A stretch of DNA of 64,000 bases from a virus. Positions 5,538 to 52,004 of the stretch are shown here, piece by piece. The notes under the pieces were generated by a model. It searched no databases, was not told where the DNA came from, and saw only the letters and a program-made list of their open reading frames with translations. The stretch lies in the IMG/VR virus record IMGVR_UViG_3300028837_001398, positions 1 to 64,000 of that record; one strand, written 5' to 3'. A program made the translations under genes and the position numbers. Position 1 is the first letter of the stretch, and each line of letters opens with the position of its first letter.

Positions 5538-5612
5538 TGGTTGCGCGGGCAGGAGTCGAACCTGCGGCCTCCGGGCAATGAACCCGGCGCGCTACCACTG
5601 CGCCACCGCGCT
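5538..5612 (-). tRNA. tRNA-Met(CAT), initiator-like
   Basis: AGCGCGG-TG-GCGC-AGTGGTA-GCGC-G-CCGGG-TTCATTG-CCCGG-AGGCC-GCAGG-TTCGACT-CCTGC-CCGCGCA-ACCA; 1:72 mismatch, GGG/CCC anticodon-stem pairs, encoded CCA. Confidence 0.88.
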
Positions 5613-42356: not shown

Positions 42357-43070
42357 TTATTCGGCCACGGCTATCCATCCAGCGAAGTTCATCCAACGCC
42401 AGAAGCAGTCAACGGTCTGGAATCCCGCCATCCGAAGCAGTTCCTCGTTCCATGCCGCCGTAACCGGAACCAGTACCCCCTCCAGCGACAGACGCTTGCG
42501 CTTGATCTGATCTTCCGTGTACCCCTGGCGCCGTTTCATGTCGAGATACTCTGCGACGAAGGCCTTGTCGAGTCGAGCATTGGCACCGAGCACCTTCTCC
42601 ACAACGATAAAGGCACCACCAGGCACCAGGCAGTCGTGCGCGTCCTGGACGATGCGTTGCCGGTATTCGATTGGGACGAACTGGAGCGTCAGGATCCCCA
42701 TGACGACGCTCGCCCTCTCTGGAGGAAAGGTCTCCCGCAGATCGAGTTCCCTGATGTCCACAATCCCAGAACTCATATAGCCATTGAACCGTTCCCGCGC
42801 GGCAGCCAGCATTGGCTCTGACACGTCGACCCCGACGAATCGACACTGCGCACCGAACTTGTCCACGAACGGCTGCAGCGCTTCTCCCCTGGAACACCCA
42901 AGGTCGACGATGCTCGTGCCGGGCTCTACATGCCGACAGCCGAGACGGAAGACTGTCTCGCGCATGACTTCGTACTGAGGTATGCTCCGCCTCAGCATGT
43001 CATCGAAGACGGCCGTCACATCGCCGTCGAACGTCCAGTGCTTGCCGGGTAGTACAGAGTCGTGTCCCAT
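42357..43070 (-). CDS. cmoA: carboxy-SAM synthase CmoA-like protein
   Basis: WTFD..V..VFDDMLRRSIPQY, DLGCSRG, TLQFV, EKV, KRLSLEGVL.P, AGF...W.NF. Confidence 0.85.
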   Translation of the reverse strand: MGHDSVLPGKHWTFDGDVTAVFDDMLRRSIPQYEVMRETVFRLGCRHVEPGTSIVDLGCSRGEALQPFVDKFGAQCRFVGVDVSEPMLAAARERFNGYMSSGIVDIRELDLRETFPPERASVVMGILTLQFVPIEYRQRIVQDAHDCLVPGGAFIVVEKVLGANARLDKAFVAEYLDMKRRQGYTEDQIKRKRLSLEGVLVPVTAAWNEELLRMAGFQTVDCFWRWMNFAGWIAVAE

Positions 43071-43822: not shown

Positions 43823-44411
43823 CCGTCACCCCGCCGAACAGCCTCTCCACCGCATTCATCACGGGCAGCGACACAGCGGCGTCCTTGCGTGCTACCTCCC
43901 ACCCCTTCGCTGTCAGCGGCCGCGTTGCTACGAGGAACCACTGCCCCCCGATCTTCTGATACCGCCAGCCTCGCCACACAATAAACAACCACTGCCAAAG
44001 GCGTCGCATATAGGCTCCTCTCAGAACTCGACAGCGCTCTCTACGTTCCCATCTTGCTCGATCACCGACTTGCACGGCACATACGCTGTTCTTCCGCAAA
44101 GCCGTTGCGGGAATCTCCAGCATGAAGTCCTCGCTTGGAAGCCGCGCCTCAGTCCATTGCCTCGCGAGACCTGGGCGTCCTGGCATTGCGACCTTCAGCT
44201 TGACATGGAGAGCAGAGAATAGGATGCAGGCCGGTTGCTCACCATGTCCGCAGCAACTGGCTTCCGTGCGAAAGCCAGTCCGATTCAGTTCCAGGATCAG
44301 CGGGGCCAAACACCTGTCGGCACAAGCCAACCTCTTGAAACCCGGCAGGCGCAGGGCTACAGACGAACGAGGATCGCCCAATGGGACGCATCTATCGCTG
44401 TGCTCATTCAC
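43707..44411 (-). CDS. hypothetical protein with T.ASCCGH motif
   Basis: D.CLA.LI.ELN..G.RT.ASCCGHG, a recurrent phage motif. Confidence 0.55.
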   Translation of the reverse strand: MNEHSDRCVPLGDPRSSVALRLPGFKRLACADRCLAPLILELNRTGFRTEASCCGHGEQPACILFSALHVKLKVAMPGRPGLARQWTEARLPSEDFMLEIPATALRKNSVCAVQVGDRARWERRERCRVLRGAYMRRLWQWLFIVWRGWRYQKIGGQWFLVATRPLTAKGWEVARKDAAVSLPVMNAVERLFGGVTDGRLHFAEMAEAVLRERPRDRSTPGANDTRNGRVAQDA

Positions 44412-46081
44412 GCCGCGCCTCCCATTGCCAATACCGGCTGCTCCAACCAGTGCGCCAACCTCGCCTCGGCTATGCGGACGTACTCCTCTTCCCTCTCGCA
44501 CCCCAGGAATCGGAACCCCTCCTGCCCCGCCGCTATCAGCGTGGAACCAGAGCCGGCGAACGGGTCAAGAACAACCCCGCCGGGAGGCGTCACCAACCGG
44601 CAGAGCCAGCGCATGAGGGCGAGGGGCTTGACGGTGGGGTGGTGGTTCTCCTCACACCCCGCCTCCCTCTCCTTCCTGCTCGCCTTGGCGCAGTAGAAGA
44701 AGCGGGAGGGGCCGCCGGTGTCCAGATTCCGTTCAGGGGCCACCTTCCCAGACCATCCGTTGCCATAGATCGTATAGCCACCTGGTTCTATGTTTTGCCG
44801 ATCAGGGAACCGCCCGCGATGCCGCTCCCCCACAACCTCATCCATCTGCCGCCCCGCCTCCTCGTCCAGCACGAGGTTCGCAGGCCAGCGGCCGGAGGGG
44901 TGTGGCGAAGTACGGTACTCCTCACCGCCTGGTGATGCGTTGAAGGTTCGCCCGCTCTGGCAGTCCTTATTGCTAGTCCCCCAAACCCCACTACCCTTCG
45001 TTCCTTCCACCCGGCATCCATCCACGTTCACCGCACCCGTCCCCCACCGCAGCACGTTCGCCGCTACAGTCTTCTCCGAGAGCGGCTTGCGGGCGACGCA
45101 GATCAGTTCCATCGCTGGCTTGAGGGCGGTCCCCCAGCCGGACCATTGGGCGGCTTCGGGGGTGGCGGGGACGGTGATGGGAAGTTCTGACGGGCCATCG
45201 CTTGTAAACGCGACGCCGCGCTGCGCTTTGCGATAGCCAATGACCTCGCGCTCATATTCAAGGAACTTAGCTGGGTGTTCTATGTCCTCAGATACACCGA
45301 GCAACTGCTTGAGGATTGCCCAGTCTGCAGGCGTAGGTATCTGTGGCTGACTGTTATCGAGGTAGTGCGATGCCTTATGACTGTTGACATTCCCCAATGC
45401 AGCATCTATGTCCCGATACCGTAGCTTGCATTGCTTGACTCGCTCGCGAAGCCAGGCGCGCACCTCATCAAACCGCGCATTCGGTCCGCCCTGTTTGTCT
45501 ATCGCCTTGCTCACGTCTAGGCTCTTGGGAAATCCTGAGCCGTACACCCACGCTATCGTGTCCCTGATCTCGAAGCCCGCGTCCTCGATGGCGCAGACGA
45601 GGCGGTGGTAGGTGCGAGTGCCGCCGAATGCGAGGAGGTGGGCACCAGGCTTGAGGACGCGGTAGACCTCGGCTGCCCACCGGTGGTGCCAAGATTGCAT
45701 CGCCGAAAGTTGGCGGTGATAGCCCGCACCAGTCATGTCATTCGGCAGGCCTTCATTCTCGGGATTGCGCCGCTTACCTATCGCCTTCCAGTGGTCGTGC
45801 GGTTGTGGGCAAGTACACTTCTTAGCACCCCGGAGCCGACCGCCGCACTCAGCGCAGGTAGGATTTGCCGCACCGAATCGGGAGGTAGACGAGAAAGAAA
45901 CCCATTCAGTTTGCCGTTCACCGATCCCCGGCTTCGAGAACCCGCCCCCAGCGTGCCAACCGAGCTTGTCCCAATCCTTGCCCATGAACTCCAAGCCATA
46001 GGGCGGATCGGTGACGCAGGACTCGCAGGAGTCAGCCTCCAGCGTCGGCAGCCACTCTAGGCAGTCGGCGTGTGCTATCAC
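44408..46081 (-). CDS. N4/N6 DNA methyltransferase (beta class) with Zn-finger and HTH insertions
   Basis: VTDPPY, GFEIRD.I.W.YGSGFPKS, HPTVKP, LDPFAGSGST. Confidence 0.93.
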   Translation of the reverse strand: MIAHADCLEWLPTLEADSCESCVTDPPYGLEFMGKDWDKLGWHAGGGFSKPGIGERQTEWVSFSSTSRFGAANPTCAECGGRLRGAKKCTCPQPHDHWKAIGKRRNPENEGLPNDMTGAGYHRQLSAMQSWHHRWAAEVYRVLKPGAHLLAFGGTRTYHRLVCAIEDAGFEIRDTIAWVYGSGFPKSLDVSKAIDKQGGPNARFDEVRAWLRERVKQCKLRYRDIDAALGNVNSHKASHYLDNSQPQIPTPADWAILKQLLGVSEDIEHPAKFLEYEREVIGYRKAQRGVAFTSDGPSELPITVPATPEAAQWSGWGTALKPAMELICVARKPLSEKTVAANVLRWGTGAVNVDGCRVEGTKGSGVWGTSNKDCQSGRTFNASPGGEEYRTSPHPSGRWPANLVLDEEAGRQMDEVVGERHRGRFPDRQNIEPGGYTIYGNGWSGKVAPERNLDTGGPSRFFYCAKASRKEREAGCEENHHPTVKPLALMRWLCRLVTPPGGVVLDPFAGSGSTLIAAGQEGFRFLGCEREEEYVRIAEARLAHWLEQPVLAMGGAA

Positions 46082-46085
46082 GGGG

Positions 46086-47537
46086 TCAACCCCACCCGAT
46101 CCGGAACGGAGGTGCCTCTTCGTCCTGAAGCATCAGGGCCCACAATGCCCAGACCAGAGCGTCTAACCGATCTGGGCTGTGTGCTCCCTCGTAGCCGTTC
46201 GCGGTCATGTGCATGAGCTGATACTCAAGATCCTCGAACCTGCCCACATGGTGCACACGGCCTTGCTCGTACAGGGAAGCCACAGGCTCAGCCCGCCGCT
46301 CTTTGCCCCGACTTGCATTCACCTTCTTGTACCGCACGTTCCTGTCAACTGTGCGAATATTGACCTCGACGAGATCCCCCCCGTTGTTGGCCTCGCCAAC
46401 GATGCAGTCCCCTCCGTACCGACCCATCGCATCGACCGCGCGTTGCGCCCACGTATTCGGAGAGAAGACCCCACTGCGGTCGGACAGAACATAGCCGTGT
46501 CCGTCCACACCGAGCCCTGCAACTGCAATACCCGTCTCGTCCGACTCCGCATTGCTCGTCACCGCTGGGTCAATGGCCACCACGACTCGCTTCATCTCTG
46601 GCGCCGTCGATACGCGCAAATCATCCAGCATCGCCTGTGTCCACATGGCCCCCCGGACCTCTGCCTGCGGGTTCTGCTGATAGACTGCATCCCAGACGTG
46701 CCCGCGGGTTCCCGCCTTGATCGCGGCCAACGCTTCACTGCCGATCCGTTCGGGCCACAACGGCGCGCCAACCTCCCGGCCGAGAAGATCGTTCTCTTCC
46801 GCCTCTGCTGGCAGCCGCAACACCTCCCAATGCTCACCCCCGTTTGCCTCATCCGCCATAAGCCAACCTGGGAAGTCCCACACGTCATACCGCGTACAAA
46901 CCACCACAATGGGCCCGTTCGGCACACGTGGACGGAAGATCGGTTGGTACCAATGCTCGAAGAGCTGGCGCGTGTGCTTGCGGTTCCGGGCATCTATCTC
47001 TGTCTTGTGCGGGTCGTCGATGATTGCGATCTCTGCACCGTGTCCCGGCAACGGTCCCCCGACACCCGAAGCGTGCAGACGCCCCCGGTGGCCTGCGATC
47101 TCCCAATGACTGACGGCATACGATTCCTGCGATACCTTGATGCCGAAGAGCTCTTCGCCCACATCCTCCATGGTGCGGCGAGCATCCCGAGAGAGCGAAT
47201 GGGCCAGGTCGGCGGTGTGGCACGTCAGAATCATGCGACGGTCTGGATTCCGGCCCATGGCATAGCAGGGGAAGTTCCGGCTCACAATGTCGCTCTTCCC
47301 GTGCTGTGAGGGGATGCACACGATCAACCGCAGGATCTCGCCTCGCTCTACGGCTTCGAGGTATTCACACAGGAGCAGATGGACCTTCGAGGGTTGCCAG
47401 GCGCCAGCGCTGGAATACGTGATAAAGTCCGCGAGTCCCCGGCGCGCCCCTCGCCGGTTCAACTCGAGTCGGGCCGCTGCTCGGGCCTCCAGTTCAGCGC
47501 GGCTTAGCTCCTTCGGCAATCGCTTTGAGTTCGTCAT
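46086..47537 (-). CDS. terL: terminase large subunit
   Basis: PSQHGKS Walker A, IIDDP Walker B, YQQNP, AIDPA, SPDRLDA. Confidence 0.93.
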   Translation of the reverse strand: MTNSKRLPKELSRAELEARAAARLELNRRGARRGLADFITYSSAGAWQPSKVHLLLCEYLEAVERGEILRLIVCIPSQHGKSDIVSRNFPCYAMGRNPDRRMILTCHTADLAHSLSRDARRTMEDVGEELFGIKVSQESYAVSHWEIAGHRGRLHASGVGGPLPGHGAEIAIIDDPHKTEIDARNRKHTRQLFEHWYQPIFRPRVPNGPIVVVCTRYDVWDFPGWLMADEANGGEHWEVLRLPAEAEENDLLGREVGAPLWPERIGSEALAAIKAGTRGHVWDAVYQQNPQAEVRGAMWTQAMLDDLRVSTAPEMKRVVVAIDPAVTSNAESDETGIAVAGLGVDGHGYVLSDRSGVFSPNTWAQRAVDAMGRYGGDCIVGEANNGGDLVEVNIRTVDRNVRYKKVNASRGKERRAEPVASLYEQGRVHHVGRFEDLEYQLMHMTANGYEGAHSPDRLDALVWALWALMLQDEEAPPFRIGWG

Positions 47538-48081
47538 CGCTGTATCCGCTAAGCTCGCGGTGCTCAATGGGACCTCCATCCTTGCCCGTGTGCTCGTAAC
47601 GGCTAGAGTCCCGCCATCGATCTGGAAGCCTGTTCTTCAGGTAGAAAATCTGCGCAGTTGTGTCCGGGAGAACGGTCTTCGTGACCTTCTCCCGCCGCAC
47701 CACACGGGGCACGTTCTTCTTGACATCCAGTTCGACGACCTCCCTAGTCTCCTCGTAGGTGTAACCCAGCGCTCGACGGTATAGGGCGCCCTCTACCCGT
47801 AGATCCACCTCCTGCTTGCTCTCCTTTAGGGCTTCGGCCAACTCGGGGTGAAGGCGGATTACCTCGTAGAAGTAGGTCGCGGAGTAGCCCAGAGCCTCGG
47901 CTATCTGGGCATTGGTGCATCCTTGCCGAGCAAGTTGGCGCGCTATCTCGACCGAACGCTCCCCCTGCCATTTGCTACGGTTCCCCCTCCGCTTCCCCTT
48001 AGCCTCGGCTTTCGGCTTCTCCCCATCGCCTGCCGGGGGATTCTCGGCCGCAGTCTGTTCAGCTTTGTCCTCGTCTGCCAT
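47494..48081 (-). CDS. terS: terminase small subunit
   Basis: HTH; VEGALYRRALGY; PDTTAQIFYLKNR.PD.WRD; TGKDGGPI. Confidence 0.9.
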   Translation of the reverse strand: MADEDKAEQTAAENPPAGDGEKPKAEAKGKRRGNRSKWQGERSVEIARQLARQGCTNAQIAEALGYSATYFYEVIRLHPELAEALKESKQEVDLRVEGALYRRALGYTYEETREVVELDVKKNVPRVVRREKVTKTVLPDTTAQIFYLKNRLPDRWRDSSRYEHTGKDGGPIEHRELSGYSDDELKAIAEGAKPR

Positions 48082-48115: not shown

Positions 48116-48185
48116 CCAAAAGCCAAGCGCCCAGGGACACTATTCCCTGAGCGCGTCTGCGGTTGTTCCGCTTCGCCCGCCTGGT
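48116..48185 (-). promoter_or_regulatory. attenuator-like leader RNA before terS (repeat copy 2)
   Basis: Near-copy of 41086-41155. Confidence 0.75.
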
Positions 48186-48278
48186 TATGTCGGCTGGCCT
48201 CCCAACTCAACCTCGGCCCTGGGTTTTTCCTTTCAGCCTCGGCATCAACGCTGGTCCGCCATGCTGATTGTCAGTCTG

Positions 48279-48309
48279 ACTATACCATTTTAGGGTACGA
48301 CGTTGTCAA
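48279..48309 (-). promoter_or_regulatory. promoter with 19-bp spacer upstream of terS
   Basis: TTGACA-19bp-TATAGT, with TGG before the -10. Confidence 0.6.
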
Positions 48310-48325
48310 GGGCGTTGAAAGGGGA

Positions 48326-48401
48326 TGGAGCGGGGCACGGGACTCGAACCCGGGGCCTTCAGTCTGGAAGACTGATGCTCTACCATCTGAGCTATCCCCG
48401 C
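48326..48401 (-). tRNA. tRNA-Gly(TCC) with mismatched 7:66 and 49:65 pairs
   Basis: GCGGGGA-TA-GCTC-AGATGGTA-GAGC-A-TCAGT-CTTCCAG-ACTGA-AGGCC-CCGGG-TTCGAGT-CCCGT-GCCCCGC-TCCA. Confidence 0.9.
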
Positions 48402-48439
48402 TCAGCCACAGAACCCTACCATGCCACAGGGGTATTGTG

Positions 48440-49390
48440 TCAAGGTTTCGGCACCGCCAGGTAGCTCTGGGCCCATTGGGCCAGAGCGGATGCCCTGTCG
48501 CCACCATCAAGTTCGCCCCGGGCCTGCATCACATCCAGGGCCTTGGCGATCACTGCGGCATCTTTGGGTTTGAGTCGATCCTTCCCGAGGACGCTAGCCA
48601 GCGGTACAGGGTGCCCGTGTTTGGGCTCACCCGTCTCTGTATCCCGCCACCCCTCCTCAAGGTCTCCCCGATGCTGCTCGAAGACATCCAGCAGAATCAT
48701 CAGCGCCGTCGCGCCATTGGTGAGGTCATTTGCCGCCCTCACCTCATCCAGATCATCCAGGAAGCGATCATACTCTGATACCCGGGCCAGAATGGTATGA
48801 TCAGGTTTCGGCAACGCAGACAGCCCCTTGAGAACATCTTTCAGCCTCTCTATCTCTTCTGGCAGAAAAGCGAAGGTCACCACGAGCAGATCCAGGTTGG
48901 CTTCGCTCAGACCGGCCAAGGCCACCTTCTCCATCTCGTCCAGAACCTTCGAGTCCAGGCCGGCATATTGCTTGAGCTCCATTGCCTCGATCTCCTCGTA
49001 CAGGCTCCGCAGGATGGCCATGTCATCCTCACCCGCCAAGGCATTGTGCGATAGCTGTACAGCAACTTGCTCCTCTCGCGTCAGGTCCGCCTCGGTGTAA
49101 AGAACCAGCACCTCTGCCAGGCCGGCTTCCCGCGCCGCCATGACCCGATGATTGCCAGACATCGCTCGAAACGTCCCTTCCGGTGTGCGACAGCAGAAGG
49201 GGACTGAGGTCAGGGCGCCATCGCGGCGGATGTTGTCCACGAGGTTGCGGAAGGTCTCGTTCCGCATGAACCGAGCATTCTTCTCGAGTAGCTCGATGCT
49301 CCCAACCGGCACTATGGCCAGCTTGAGCCCCTTGGGCAGCCGCTTGTTGATCTCCCCTACGTCATCTTCCCGTGCTTCTCCATCCACCAT
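48440..49390 (-). CDS. ParB/Srx N-terminal domain protein (DNA-modification-cluster type)
   Basis: NARFM...L..NI..DG; SGNHRVMAA; LSHNALAGEDD. Confidence 0.85.
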   Translation of the reverse strand: MVDGEAREDDVGEINKRLPKGLKLAIVPVGSIELLEKNARFMRNETFRNLVDNIRRDGALTSVPFCCRTPEGTFRAMSGNHRVMAAREAGLAEVLVLYTEADLTREEQVAVQLSHNALAGEDDMAILRSLYEEIEAMELKQYAGLDSKVLDEMEKVALAGLSEANLDLLVVTFAFLPEEIERLKDVLKGLSALPKPDHTILARVSEYDRFLDDLDEVRAANDLTNGATALMILLDVFEQHRGDLEEGWRDTETGEPKHGHPVPLASVLGKDRLKPKDAAVIAKALDVMQARGELDGGDRASALAQWAQSYLAVPKP

Positions 49391-50667
49391 GACAGAGCTT
49401 CCTCCAGTGACCACCGGCCCGCCCCTGCTTGATAGTTCAGGCGCGGCGGATTCTTCTTTCGGCTCAGGAGTTGAAACAGACCCCGATACTTTGAGGATAC
49501 GGGCCTTTCCGTGAATGCCGTTGTGCCTATTCTGCTCACCCGTCCAGAGAAGTGTTGCTGCAAGTAAATCTGCACCTCTGTGCTCAAGGCGACCGCCAGA
49601 ATCAGCTTCGCTAGCCGCGGGTAGATCGTGGGGCGCACCGGGAAGTCCGAAAGCATGTAGATTCGGCCGACCTCACGCCGGACGAAGTGGCCGATGAACC
49701 CCATAGAGCCGATGATCTTCCCGTTTGCCAGCACCGCCAACGAGGCGGTTGGCTTCACCGGGACTATCCCGGGATTCAGATAAAGACTCCGCAACTCATT
49801 GAACTGTGCCGCGCTCAGACCGGCAATAGACAGCCTTGTGTGTTCTGCGATCCGCAACGCTTCATCCGCTATCAGCGTCCCCGCCCCCTCCGTCTTCTGC
49901 ACCGGGGATGCCAGCCAACGCCGGCCCGACGAGTTCCCGTATACCCACAGTGGCTTGGAACGCGCCGAACTCTGCATGATCGCCACGGCCTCGCCCAGGT
50001 CCGGCTGAGGTTCATCTCGAGCGATCAGCCAGTAGGGCCGCTTCACCAACTGCGCCCGCACCAAAGCCATGCGCTGTTCGTCGAAGATCTCATAGCTCGG
50101 CTCGTCCCAGTCGAACACGGCCTCCATCGACCTGTAGATGCGCTCATATCCGCCGCGATATGTGGGAGGGAATGTGATGAATCCTGCGTCAACAGGAGCC
50201 TGCTCGAGCCAGTCCAAAACATCCCCGGCCCAGAACCGCTTCAAATGCACGGTGCCCGCGGTCAGTTCTATCTTCTGCAACGTTTCAGCGTGCAGCCGCT
50301 TCCACTGCGCCTTGTATGCCTGCCGCTGCCTCTGGTAGTAGGGGGCAGTCTTCCCGTAGCCCCCGAGCAGTTGGGTTGAGAGCAGGATAGTGGCAACCGC
50401 GGATGCTGGATAGCCCAGCCACGGAGAGAGCCACTCATACTCTGGATCCCGCACCTCAATGCGGAAAGGCTGTCCAGCGAGGTAACTGCCCACGCAGCAG
50501 CTATACAGGCTAACATCGTTGCCGCTCAACTCATACCCGAGCGGCGCCAAGGACCGCTCTACCGTGAAGTTCCCCGAACACCCCACGTACACTGAAGGGA
50601 CAGACCACCCTTTCACCGATGTGACGATGACCGACCGCAGGTCTGCCCCTACCGATCCAATGAACAT
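49357..50667 (-). CDS. adenine-MTase-like plus GNAT (Mom-like) fusion protein
   Basis: N-half YVGCSGNF / GNDVS / FPPTY (degenerate motifs I, II, IV); C-half LAVLANGKIIGSMGF, YMLSDF, RLAKLI, TTAFT, SKYRG in GNAT strand order; SD before MFIGSV. Confidence 0.65.
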   Translation of the reverse strand: MFIGSVGADLRSVIVTSVKGWSVPSVYVGCSGNFTVERSLAPLGYELSGNDVSLYSCCVGSYLAGQPFRIEVRDPEYEWLSPWLGYPASAVATILLSTQLLGGYGKTAPYYQRQRQAYKAQWKRLHAETLQKIELTAGTVHLKRFWAGDVLDWLEQAPVDAGFITFPPTYRGGYERIYRSMEAVFDWDEPSYEIFDEQRMALVRAQLVKRPYWLIARDEPQPDLGEAVAIMQSSARSKPLWVYGNSSGRRWLASPVQKTEGAGTLIADEALRIAEHTRLSIAGLSAAQFNELRSLYLNPGIVPVKPTASLAVLANGKIIGSMGFIGHFVRREVGRIYMLSDFPVRPTIYPRLAKLILAVALSTEVQIYLQQHFSGRVSRIGTTAFTERPVSSKYRGLFQLLSRKKNPPRLNYQAGAGRWSLEEALSWWMEKHGKMT

Positions 50668-50680
50668 TTCACCCTCGCGG

Positions 50681-51100
50681 TTATCCTGCCCAGGGGAGCT
50701 CCTGATATGCCGGCACCGCACTCCGCTCGCACCCCCACTCCGGGACCGTGATGCCCAACTCCGTCTCGAGCCACTCCGCTACGAGTCGGCGATGGCACGC
50801 AACGCCCCGCTTCTCCCAGCACAGCAATACCACGTCCCCCTTCGGCAGTCTCTTCACGATATCCGATGCTTCCAGCGCCGCCAGCTTCTTCGCCATGTGT
50901 TGGTCGTACACCCCTTGATCAGACTGCTTGACCATGTTCGGGTCTGGAGCCAGCGCAATCATTCTGCCGAGTCGCCACCCACGGGGAGGCCACCTGGCGA
51001 TCGACACCTGTGCAAGCCCTTCAGGAAACCGCCGACACATTCCGAAGTAACTGGTCCAGATGCGCCTAACTTTACGGCTACGCTTCCCTGAATCCACCAT
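50681..51100 (-). CDS. DUF488-family protein
   Basis: TSYF, SIAR.PP, LAP, LLCWEK...CHRRLVAEWL. Confidence 0.85.
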   Translation of the reverse strand: MVDSGKRSRKVRRIWTSYFGMCRRFPEGLAQVSIARWPPRGWRLGRMIALAPDPNMVKQSDQGVYDQHMAKKLAALEASDIVKRLPKGDVVLLCWEKRGVACHRRLVAEWLETELGITVPEWGCERSAVPAYQELPWAG

Positions 51101-52004
51101 CCCCTCCTCGTCCCGACACCAACGATGTTAGCCGGCGCCGTTCTAGTTCCTTCGCCAATGCCTGCTCGACCTGCCCGAACCATTGCTTCAGATTCCGAAC
51201 CTTCCCCAGGTCCAATTCGACTGCGTTCGTAAGGAGTTTCGCGCTCACCCTCTGCAGTCTCTCGTCCCATGTCGTGGCGAGCAGATCCGATACCTTGTCT
51301 AGCGCGGCCAGGAACCGCACCCGTGACTTCTGCTCCTCCTCGCTCAGAACCCGGACCGTGAACAGAGCATCTTGGTCCTGTGATCCCCCAACCATGCCAG
51401 GATTCCTCATGATCCTTACCAAGTGTCCCACTTCATGCTGCGTCAGCCCATTCCGAACAGCGTGCAGAGCCACCTTCATCTGTTCCTCGGGATCCTCCAC
51501 CTGCGCGATGAACCACGCTGCCCCCGGCCCCAGAGAACCCGAGATCACCAGCGCCCGCACCCCCTTCCCAAGCGAGCAGAGCTGGAGCTTGTCCCTCACA
51601 TACTGCACGCTCTTCCCCGTCGTCTCTGCGATGCTTTCCACTGTCATATCATAGGTGCCCCGCATGGTCGCGTACGCATCCGCTTCTTCGATCACGTTGA
51701 TGTCCTGTCGCTGGACATTCCCGACCACTGCCATCCGGTAGGCTTCTGCGTCCGTCGCCAATACAACGCGGCACGGAACCGTTGCTACCTTTGCCAGCTT
51801 CGCCGCTCGGAACCGCCGCTCGCCAGCGATGATCTCGAACCGGTGCCGCTGCCGCGGATGCGGGCGCACCACGAGATTCTGGAGAACCCCCTGCTCCAGG
51901 ATAGATGCGGCCAGCTTGCCCAAAGACTCCTCATCGAAGTTATGCCGGTGCTGGGTCGCGTTGGCATCGATGTCGCTCGTCGGGATCTGCTGGATACCTA
52001 CCAT
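51078..52004 (-). CDS. ParB/Spo0J-family protein
   Basis: LAASI.EQGVLQ.L.VR, IAGERRFRAA, N.QRQDIN.IEEA, HTH. Confidence 0.9.
   Translation of the reverse strand: MVGIQQIPTSDIDANATQHRHNFDEESLGKLAASILEQGVLQNLVVRPHPRQRHRFEIIAGERRFRAAKLAKVATVPCRVVLATDAEAYRMAVVGNVQRQDINVIEEADAYATMRGTYDMTVESIAETTGKSVQYVRDKLQLCSLGKGVRALVISGSLGPGAAWFIAQVEDPEEQMKVALHAVRNGLTQHEVGHLVRIMRNPGMVGGSQDQDALFTVRVLSEEEQKSRVRFLAALDKVSDLLATTWDERLQRVSAKLLTNAVELDLGKVRNLKQWFGQVEQALAKELERRRLTSLVSGRGGDGGFREA

Follow-up and report, generated by a model that had tools for sequence, protein, structure and literature searches.

We have analysed a window of 64,000 nucleotides of phage DNA, the first 64 kb (positions 1 to 64,000) of the 72,435-base IMG/VR virus record IMGVR_UViG_3300028837_001398. 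Its tRNA-Gly(UCC) gene is the last element of a three-part operon, behind the genes for a Dam-like/GNAT-like fusion protein and a ParB-like protein and directly upstream of the terminase genes, and the tRNA has two adjacent mismatches at the junction of its acceptor and T stems. With slightly better than even confidence we interpret this tRNA as a dedicated glycyl donor for the fusion protein, which would be a DNA-modifying enzyme that acts much like Mom of bacteriophage Mu but is unrelated to it. The phage identity of the record, which has an estimated completeness of 92% and a G+C content of 63%, was confirmed, and the sequencing runs that hold it are marine-sediment metagenomes, with no RNA run among those listed. 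ARAGORN calls two tRNAs in the window, a tRNA-Met and the tRNA-Gly (tcc); their coordinates, with those of the other features, are collected in Table 1.

The tRNA-Gly combines an intact glycyl-tRNA synthetase (GlyRS) identity with a broken junction. By sequence reading it has G1:C72, C2:G71, G3:C70, U73 and a UCC anticodon with C35 and C36, and it further keeps G18G19, the T54-psi55-C56 elbow bases that start the T loop, U33, A37 and an encoded CCA end. At the junction, A7 stands opposite G66 and C49 opposite U65, and the remaining 19 stem pairs are all intact. The Rfam tRNA model RF00005 matches the window at 48329-48401 (cmscan, 54.9 bits, E 2.1e-11), and the NC line of the alignment flags exactly these two pairs, 7:66 and 49:65, as non-standard ('vv' at 48336-48337). 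In the minimum-energy fold, a cloverleaf, the acceptor stem has 6 bp and the T stem 4 bp, both junction pairs being open; the molecule thus lacks the regular 7-bp acceptor and 5-bp T stem stacked as a 12-bp helix. The original prediction, made from the letters alone, had proposed both the preserved GlyRS identity and the adjacent A7.G66 and C49.U65 mismatches, and both were borne out, the former by the sequence, ARAGORN and Rfam and the latter by the sequence, the Rfam NC line and the fold. Cross-pairing of A7 with U65 and of C49 with G66, both Watson-Crick, which would give an interdigitated junction or a bulge with an 11-bp helix, was considered and set aside as speculation, as it has no comparative support and the double mismatch occurs in no other sequence.

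The observation of a tRNA-Gly(UCC) with both junction mismatches is real. Three Logan contigs cover the gene, each with 0 differing letters and 0 gaps: one from run X1 (record 1), probably the sample from which the record came, one from run X3 (record 12, 48253-48527), which is another sample of the same study, and one from run X4 (record 18, 48134-48448), which belongs to a different study of 2024. These concordant records are assembled contigs rather than raw reads, and their depth is low (3-7). The tRNA sequence is identical in samples of 2016 and 2024.

Comparison with orthologous tRNAs had been proposed as a check; neither an exact 26-mer nor a degenerate anticodon/T-arm pattern found an orthologue in viral or metagenome contigs. 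Two viral pattern matches, L017 and L021, are unrelated phages with regular pairs; three relatives identified by the large terminase subunit, TerL (64-66% identity), carry neither a tRNA nor the Dam-like/GNAT module; a DNA search of INPHARED with the region returned short tRNA-to-tRNA matches only; and a search with the ParB-like protein alone returned a single distant locus. More distant cellular kin could be compared. A pattern made of the 5' half of the window tRNA, with positions 7 and 27-32 left free, gave 126 matches in genome and metagenome contigs, the named ones mostly from Dehalococcoidia, Aerophobetes and Myxococcota; they reduce to 45 distinct tRNA-Gly(UCC) of standard layout. Position 7:66 is a standard pair in all 45, and 49:65 is G.U in 40, A-U in 4 and C-G in 1; 43 of the 45 have no stem mismatch at all. 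The nearest relative is identical to the window tRNA at 64 of 73 positions. Relative to this cellular type, the window tRNA departs by G49 to C and U66 to G, i.e. exactly at the junction pairs, and because its nearest cellular relatives have G49.U65 together with A7-U66, the natural route to its sequence is two substitutions, at 49 and 66, rather than an inversion. Among viruses the combination is rare as well. Of 101 distinct generic viral tRNA-Gly(UCC), picked by the anticodon loop and 3' end only, none has an unpaired 7:66 and one has an unpaired 49:65; among 624 viral tRNAs of all kinds parsed in the control loci the counts are 5 and 6, and no tRNA has both.

The same 5' half also occurs in a set of tRNA-Gly(UCC) genes from metagenome and Aerophobetes contigs that carry an insertion directly past the anticodon stem (L081, L086, L088, L102, L104, L107, L112, L114, L118, L120, L122, L124, L131, L133, L137 and L025). 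In L086 and L107 the match to the Rfam tRNA model extends over 94 and 122 nt, respectively, and scores no more than 32-33 bits; the insertions matched no intron family.

The position of the gene led to the fusion protein as the likely partner of the tRNA. On one strand, the fusion gene, the ParB-like gene, the tRNA, a terminator-like hairpin, terS and terL follow each other in the order of transcription, with 38 nt between the ParB-like gene and the tRNA. The hairpin, which is possibly the end of the operon, comes from a consensus scan that returned 4 sites against 1.8 expected. When IMG/VR was searched with a profile built from 41 fusion-protein homologues, 242 relatives came up; the counts that follow cover the best 80 loci (1.145 Mb). 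ARAGORN called 56 tRNAs in these loci, of which 46 are tRNA-Gly with the anticodon UCC, CCC or ACC. A tRNA-Gly is present in 45 of the 80 loci; in 39 it shares the strand of the fusion gene and precedes it by no more than 400 nt, the usual distance being 30-240 nt. A covariance model, R1, built from 41 distinct linked tRNA sequences (the window tRNA, which scores 72.4 bits, was itself in the training set), revealed degenerate tRNA-Gly-like elements in 9 loci where ARAGORN had found nothing, plus one weak match in L183. A tRNA-Gly-like element thus flanks the module in 54 of 80 loci and in 21 of 32 protein clusters formed at 70% identity. A ParB-like homologue follows directly downstream of the fusion gene on the same strand in every locus (80/80), and a terS homologue comes after the module in 34. 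The order seen in the window, with the tRNA-Gly behind the ParB-like gene, is shared by L171, L168 and L179; in most others the tRNA is at the 5' position. Conversely, no fusion gene was found around generic viral tRNA-Gly(UCC) (0 of 120 loci).

The linkage extends to cultured phages, 15 records of which contain the fusion gene. The sole tRNA of Mycobacterium phage Taptic (Gly, tcc) adjoins the fusion homologue gp92, which is followed by gp91, and in Gordonia phage Clawz R1 detects an unannotated tRNA-Gly-like element 104 nt upstream of gp29, followed by a gene annotated as 'ParB-like nuclease domain protein'. The accessible part of the Taptic announcement names the single tRNA-Gly without comment and reports no integrase. 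A role of these tRNAs as attP integration sites was rejected: they have full length, have diverged from cellular tRNAs and run in the same direction as the gene, and no integrase is reported in that part of the Taptic paper. Our literature search, which did not extend to subscription journals, found no paper on the PF22555/PF22559 architecture of the fusion protein or on a tRNA-Gly linked to it. Two loci have tandem tRNA-Gly-like pairs upstream of the fusion gene (L190, 1478-1626; L204, 3245-3408).

The linked tRNAs conserve what a tRNA needs to be charged with glycine. The invariant columns in the 41 aligned sequences are G1, C2, C35, C36, G53, C61, G71, C72 and U73; once the structural G53:C61 is set aside, they coincide with the bacterial GlyRS determinants, G1:C72, C2:G71, C35, C36 and U73, as listed in PMC10464925. 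The cloverleaf itself is maintained by covariation, 96.6% of cells being paired and 241 cells changed on both sides, a level reached in 0 of 500 shuffles. U73 is present in all 52 distinct linked tRNAs and the CCA is encoded in 37. The conservation of these determinants, C35, C36 and U73 included, together with the encoded CCA, therefore points to selection for glycine charging. Features of the decoding apparatus are kept less strictly: U33 is retained by 38 of 50 sequences and a purine at 37 by 35 of them, the D loop has GG in 26 of 52, and the T loops of many are aberrant. Position 34 in the 52 distinct sequences is U in 32, A in 11 and C in 7. A glycine tRNA with A34 is hardly used for decoding in bacteria; here the ACC anticodon occurs in 11 of 50 distinct sequences (L160, L172, L179, L204, L205, L216, L221, L227 and others), and C is found at position 37 in 12 of 50. 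As judged from these alignments and from the predicted EF-Tu affinities given below, the class looks selected for charging and relaxed, or counter-selected, for EF-Tu binding and decoding.

Predicted affinities for elongation factor EF-Tu point in the same direction. As described in PMC3239215 and PMC7826273, affinity is set by the pairs 49:65, 50:64 and 51:63, with G49.U65 as the tightest 49:65 pair, and the staphylococcal non-proteogenic tRNA-Gly bind EF-Tu weakly (-9.5 kcal/mol, against a mean of -10.8 for bacterial Gly-UCC); what the original prediction had stated about this tuning agrees with these sources. We applied the additive delta-delta-G table of Schrader and Uhlenbeck (PMC3239215, Table 2) with a base value of -10.1, back-calculated from Table 3 of the same paper and checked on four of its rows. 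The predicted mean for the module-linked tRNA-Gly is -9.44 kcal/mol (41 of 52 sequences with tabulated pairs), compared with -10.56 for generic viral tRNA-Gly(UCC) (97 of 101) and -11.10 for the cellular tRNA-Gly(UCC) of the same body (44 of 45). A value weaker than -10.0 is obtained for 34 of these 41 linked tRNAs, and not one of them is as tight as -10.8 (Mann-Whitney p ~1e-16 over distinct sequences, 3e-8 over cluster medians). G49.U65 is found in none of the 52 linked tRNAs, and G51:C63 in two, one of which is the window tRNA. The latter has both C50:G64 and G51:C63, which are EF-Tu-tight, and a C.U at 49:65 that has no tabulated value. The cellular-type GU/CG/GC T stem scores -11.2 kcal/mol, to which G49.U65, the strongest 49:65 pair, contributes -0.9, and 7:66 is stacked on it; on the additive model the loss of this G.U would cost at least 0.9 kcal/mol, even if the C.U mismatch behaves like the weakest tabulated pair. 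We infer by extension of this model that the two junction mismatches would lower the binding of the window tRNA to EF-Tu.

The domains of the fusion protein would suit an enzyme that works on DNA with a group-transfer activity attached. Pfam finds PF22555 (DAM-like-phage1, 8e-75) and PF22559 (GNAT-phage-like, 1e-44), and the AlphaFold model has a mean pLDDT of 88. When this model was compared with the PDB by Foldseek, the N-terminal half resembled E. coli Dam (E 9e-4) and the C-terminal half resembled GNATs, with probability 1.00 to many of them and to Mu Mom (8bv8_A, rank 32 in the list, E 2.3e-3). The family keeps an [F/Y]PPTY motif, which may stand at the place of the DPPY of N6-adenine methyltransferases. 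The Gly-rich R/QxxGxG/A coenzyme A (CoA) loop after beta-4 is not present in the 10 alignment rows viewed, a weak hint that the donor may be something other than acyl-CoA. Sequence searches of the PDB, made with the protein and with its profile, yielded no meaningful match, the Mom family PF25680 has no match in the window record, and a search for longer fused forms of the GNAT part (764-2180 aa) returned none. The homologues P0044 and P0060 carry extra nuclease-type domains (PF01844 HNH; PF04480 and PF18741), consistent with a DNA-directed role. Among neighbours of residues 275-436 of the window protein (P0001) in the ESM Atlas is the fold-similar DruA of the Druantia defence system (TM 0.82-0.84 by query), and these DruA-type neighbours include viral DruA+ParB_N fusions. 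GNAT-phage-like is also found fused to DAM-like-phage2 and Amidoligase_2 in 692-aa forms, known from automatic cluster names of the ESM Atlas. By such names, these proteins and the DruA and DruA+ParB_N proteins carry the same or a fold-similar acyl-transfer-like domain in viruses.

The closest precedent for the proposed function is Mom of phage Mu, a GNAT that, according to Silva et al. (PMC13219725; bioRxiv 10.1101/2023.03.24.534169), moves glycine from Gly-tRNA-Gly to the N6 of adenine in double-stranded DNA, giving 6-NcmdA. All three E. coli tRNA-Gly isoacceptors serve as donors there and Gly-tRNA-Ala does not (PMC13219725). Like Mom, the enzyme of the window is a phage protein of GNAT fold in a DNA context, has a tRNA-Gly as partner RNA and is encoded among late genes. 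Unlike Mom, which has a helix-turn-helix-like insertion, it is fused to a Dam-like domain and is always paired with a ParB-like protein; and whereas Mu (PMC13219725) encodes no tRNA and uses any host isoacceptor, phages with the module often bring a divergent tRNA-Gly of their own.

The original prediction had instead compared the tRNA with the staphylococcal non-proteogenic tRNA-Gly (NP1-3), which serve FmhB, FemA and FemB in the synthesis of the peptidoglycan bridge (PMC7826273 and PMC3239215). As in those tRNAs, the glycylation determinants are kept and the T stems of the linked class are weak for EF-Tu, to nearly the same predicted degree (-9.5 against a linked mean of -9.44 kcal/mol), and the elbow bases are lost in many linked phage tRNAs too. 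The details differ: the staphylococcal weak set is A49-U65, U50-A64 and A51-U63, as opposed to C.U, C-G and G-C in the window tRNA, which moreover has A.G at 7:66 and keeps G18G19 and the T loop. The analogy to FemXAB itself fails, as the carrier is a virus and no FemAB (PF02388) match was found in its 72,435 bases, while control genomes gave matches. Of the suggested non-ribosomal glycine donor, then, the donor part is strongly and independently backed by the operon linkage and by the conservation within the linked class, and in place of the Fem setting we propose DNA modification by the phage.

In the mechanism that we propose, host GlyRS would charge the phage tRNA-Gly, because all known bacterial determinants are present. 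The change of G49 to C and of U66 to G would destroy the tightest EF-Tu pair and the neighbouring 7:66, so that EF-Tu would hold a smaller share of the charged tRNA. The GNAT-like domain would then take the glycyl group from the 3' end of the tRNA and move it to a base, most likely the N6 of adenine, that the Dam-like domain would hold flipped out of the phage DNA. The ParB-like protein would act with the enzyme on DNA, late in infection, just before packaging. Charging, glycyl transfer and a DNA adenine as acceptor are all steps that we infer. The window tRNA is closer to cellular tRNA-Gly than to the other linked tRNAs, and it is best read as an independent and recent capture of a cellular-type tRNA-Gly(UCC), set at the 3' end of the operon, because the loci of the enzymes most similar to that of the window (L151-L159 and L218) contain no tRNA.

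Several observations weigh against the proposed donor role. The window tRNA is the most canonical of the linked set (U33, A37, G18G19, T loop, C50:G64, G51:C63) and, from its sequence, could be able to decode. The GNAT-like domain is structurally no closer to Mom than to ordinary acetyltransferases in the Foldseek comparison, and shows no detectable sequence homology to Mu Mom (BLASTP E 5.5; hhalign probability 0.4%). The affinity table holds no values for C.U at 49:65 or for 7:66, so that the weakening of the window tRNA is an extrapolation. The generic viral control was selected on a canonical anticodon loop, which favours canonical tRNAs, and the linked tRNAs are mutually related, so that sequence counts overstate their independence, for which reason cluster-level figures are given as well. 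Finally, 26 of the 80 loci have no tRNA-like element, among them those of the closest relatives of the window enzyme (44-48% identity); the tRNA is therefore dispensable, and that of the window an independent acquisition.

These points bear most directly on the strongest alternative, that the window encodes an ordinary decoding tRNA, which supplements the reading of GGA and GGG or replaces a host tRNA-Gly disabled by defence, with near-neutral mismatches and a merely incidental position beside the module. We consider this unlikely. The anticodon loop, the elbow and the other stems are canonical, and GGA (14%) and GGG (29%) together make up ~43% of the glycine codons in a crude set of open reading frames (ORFs) of the window. 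Codon compensation and defence evasion are the common readings of phage tRNAs (PMC10264068), and the toxSAS FaRel2 is described as targeting tRNA-Gly (bioRxiv 10.1101/2024.07.05.602228); the lack of a tRNA beside the closest enzyme relatives fits as well. Like ordinary phage tRNAs, the window tRNA is encoded near structural and packaging genes and looks capable of decoding. Unlike it, however, generic viral tRNA-Gly(UCC) have regular junction pairs, stronger predicted EF-Tu binding and no fusion gene nearby. An incidental position is also hard to reconcile with a phage that has only two tRNAs and places one of them 38 nt past the ParB-like gene, in an order shared with three other loci, or with a module that has a tRNA-Gly-like element at its side in 54 of 80 loci, where 46 of 56 ARAGORN tRNAs are glycine tRNAs. 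Nor do the mismatches look neutral, as the double mismatch is seen in 0 of 624 viral tRNAs and removes the EF-Tu-tight G49.U65 that 40 of 45 cellular relatives keep.

It is improbable, in our judgement, that the tRNA belongs with the module in some role other than that of a donor, as a substrate or target of the enzyme (compare TacT, which acetylates Gly-tRNA-Gly) or a processing or regulatory element of the operon transcript. Linkage by itself does not give the direction of a reaction, GNATs that modify aminoacyl-tRNA exist (PMC13219725), and the usual same-strand position 30-240 nt upstream of the fusion gene would suit punctuation by RNase P. Yet a processing signal has no need of anticodon bases, whereas the invariant bases of the class are GlyRS determinants that include C35 and C36, and with U73 in 52 of 52 sequences and CCA in 37 of 52 they indicate selection for charging; the Dam-like domain and the obligate ParB-like partner suggest that the other substrate is DNA. 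A shade less probable still is a functionless pseudo-tRNA captured from a host and now decaying. Two mismatches in adjacent pairs would fit decay, and more distant relatives yielded no orthologue that could show conservation; however, 19 stem pairs, which is all but these two, are intact, as are the identity elements, the bases conserved in the loops and the CCA, the same sequence is found in 2016 and 2024, and both changes hit a single structural site and not random places. A sequencing or assembly error, which the original prediction had flagged since a swap of two bases (TG to GT at 65-66) would restore both pairs, can be dismissed almost entirely, as three independently assembled contigs from three samples and two studies agree without a difference and the G49.U65 and A7-U66 of the cellular relatives imply substitutions at 49 and 66, not an inversion.

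If the window tRNA is a dedicated glycyl donor, it may be one member of a larger group. We suggest tentatively, and with somewhat less than even confidence, that a widespread and hitherto undescribed class of non-proteogenic phage tRNA-Gly serves a tRNA-dependent aminoacylation of DNA by the Dam-like/GNAT-like fusion protein and its ParB-like partner. Features required for EF-Tu and the ribosome would have been shed repeatedly in this class while the needs of GlyRS were kept, and the window tRNA would be a fresh recruit at the first step, with the EF-Tu junction broken and the rest canonical. Decoration of DNA from charged tRNA would then be no peculiarity of Mu Mom but a wider strategy of phages, having arisen also in a GNAT family unrelated to it, and some phages would carry a private tRNA-Gly, the first viral counterpart of the staphylococcal cell-wall tRNAs. 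This would give a function to the uncharacterised PF22555 and PF22559 architecture and its ParB-like partner, present in more than 240 viral loci and in cultured Mycobacterium and Gordonia phages, and would explain single 'orphan' tRNA-Gly genes in phages that codon usage leaves unexplained. It would also provide a natural series of tRNAs for the study of how EF-Tu avoidance evolves, and it would predict a new type of DNA hypermodification, of interest for the evasion of restriction and for sequencing or enzymatic tools. The proposal is directly testable in phages of Mycolicibacterium smegmatis mc2 155.

Table 1. Features of the window discussed in the text, with positions in the window and strand.
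Feature	Position	Strand	Basis
tRNA-Gly(UCC), 76 nt, CCA encoded, GlyRS determinants intact, 7:66 and 49:65 non-standard	48326-48401	-	ARAGORN, Rfam RF00005, custom covariance model R1
G66 (48336) and U65 (48337), 3'-strand bases of both junction mismatches	48336-48337	-	sequence reading, cmscan marks
C49; G in 40 of 45 related cellular tRNA-Gly(UCC), forming EF-Tu-tight G49.U65	48353	-	sequence comparison, table of PMC3239215
A7, opposite G66; relatives with A7 have U66	48395	-	sequence comparison
Dam-like and GNAT-like fusion protein, 436 aa (P0001; open frame extends to 50721)	49357-50667	-	Pfam, AlphaFold, Foldseek
ParB-like protein, PHROG phrog_7405	48440-49414	-	phrog_7405, E 5e-67; weak Pfam ParB_N match
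Terminator-like hairpin, 11-bp stem and T-rich tail, between tRNA and terS	48127-48154	-	consensus scan
Small terminase subunit, terS	47494-48081	-	phrog_309
Large terminase subunit, terL	46086-47579	-	phrog_38
Second ParB-like gene	51078-52004	-	phrog_3264
Large DNA methyltransferase	44408-46081	-	phrog_67
ORF, PHROG 4752 'tRNA methyltransferase'	42357-43070	-	PHROG 4752, 2e-71
tRNA-Met, anticodon CAT	5538-5612	-	ARAGORN

The surroundings of the operon contain further genes of related type. The second ParB-like gene lies upstream of the module and the large DNA methyltransferase gene downstream of terL, and the packaging region is therefore crowded with genes of DNA-modification type. The ORF that PHROG 4752 names a tRNA methyltransferase shows only generic class-I S-adenosylmethionine methyltransferase domains in Pfam, and no homologue of it was found in the 80 module loci. 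The other tRNA of the window, tRNA-Met, has an initiator-like look by sequence reading: A1 and A72 are mismatched, the lower end of the anticodon stem is formed by three G:C pairs in a row, and position 37 is a pyrimidine (U). In L173, L183 and L207, too, a tRNA-Met gene is found, 3.2-3.7 kb downstream of the module.

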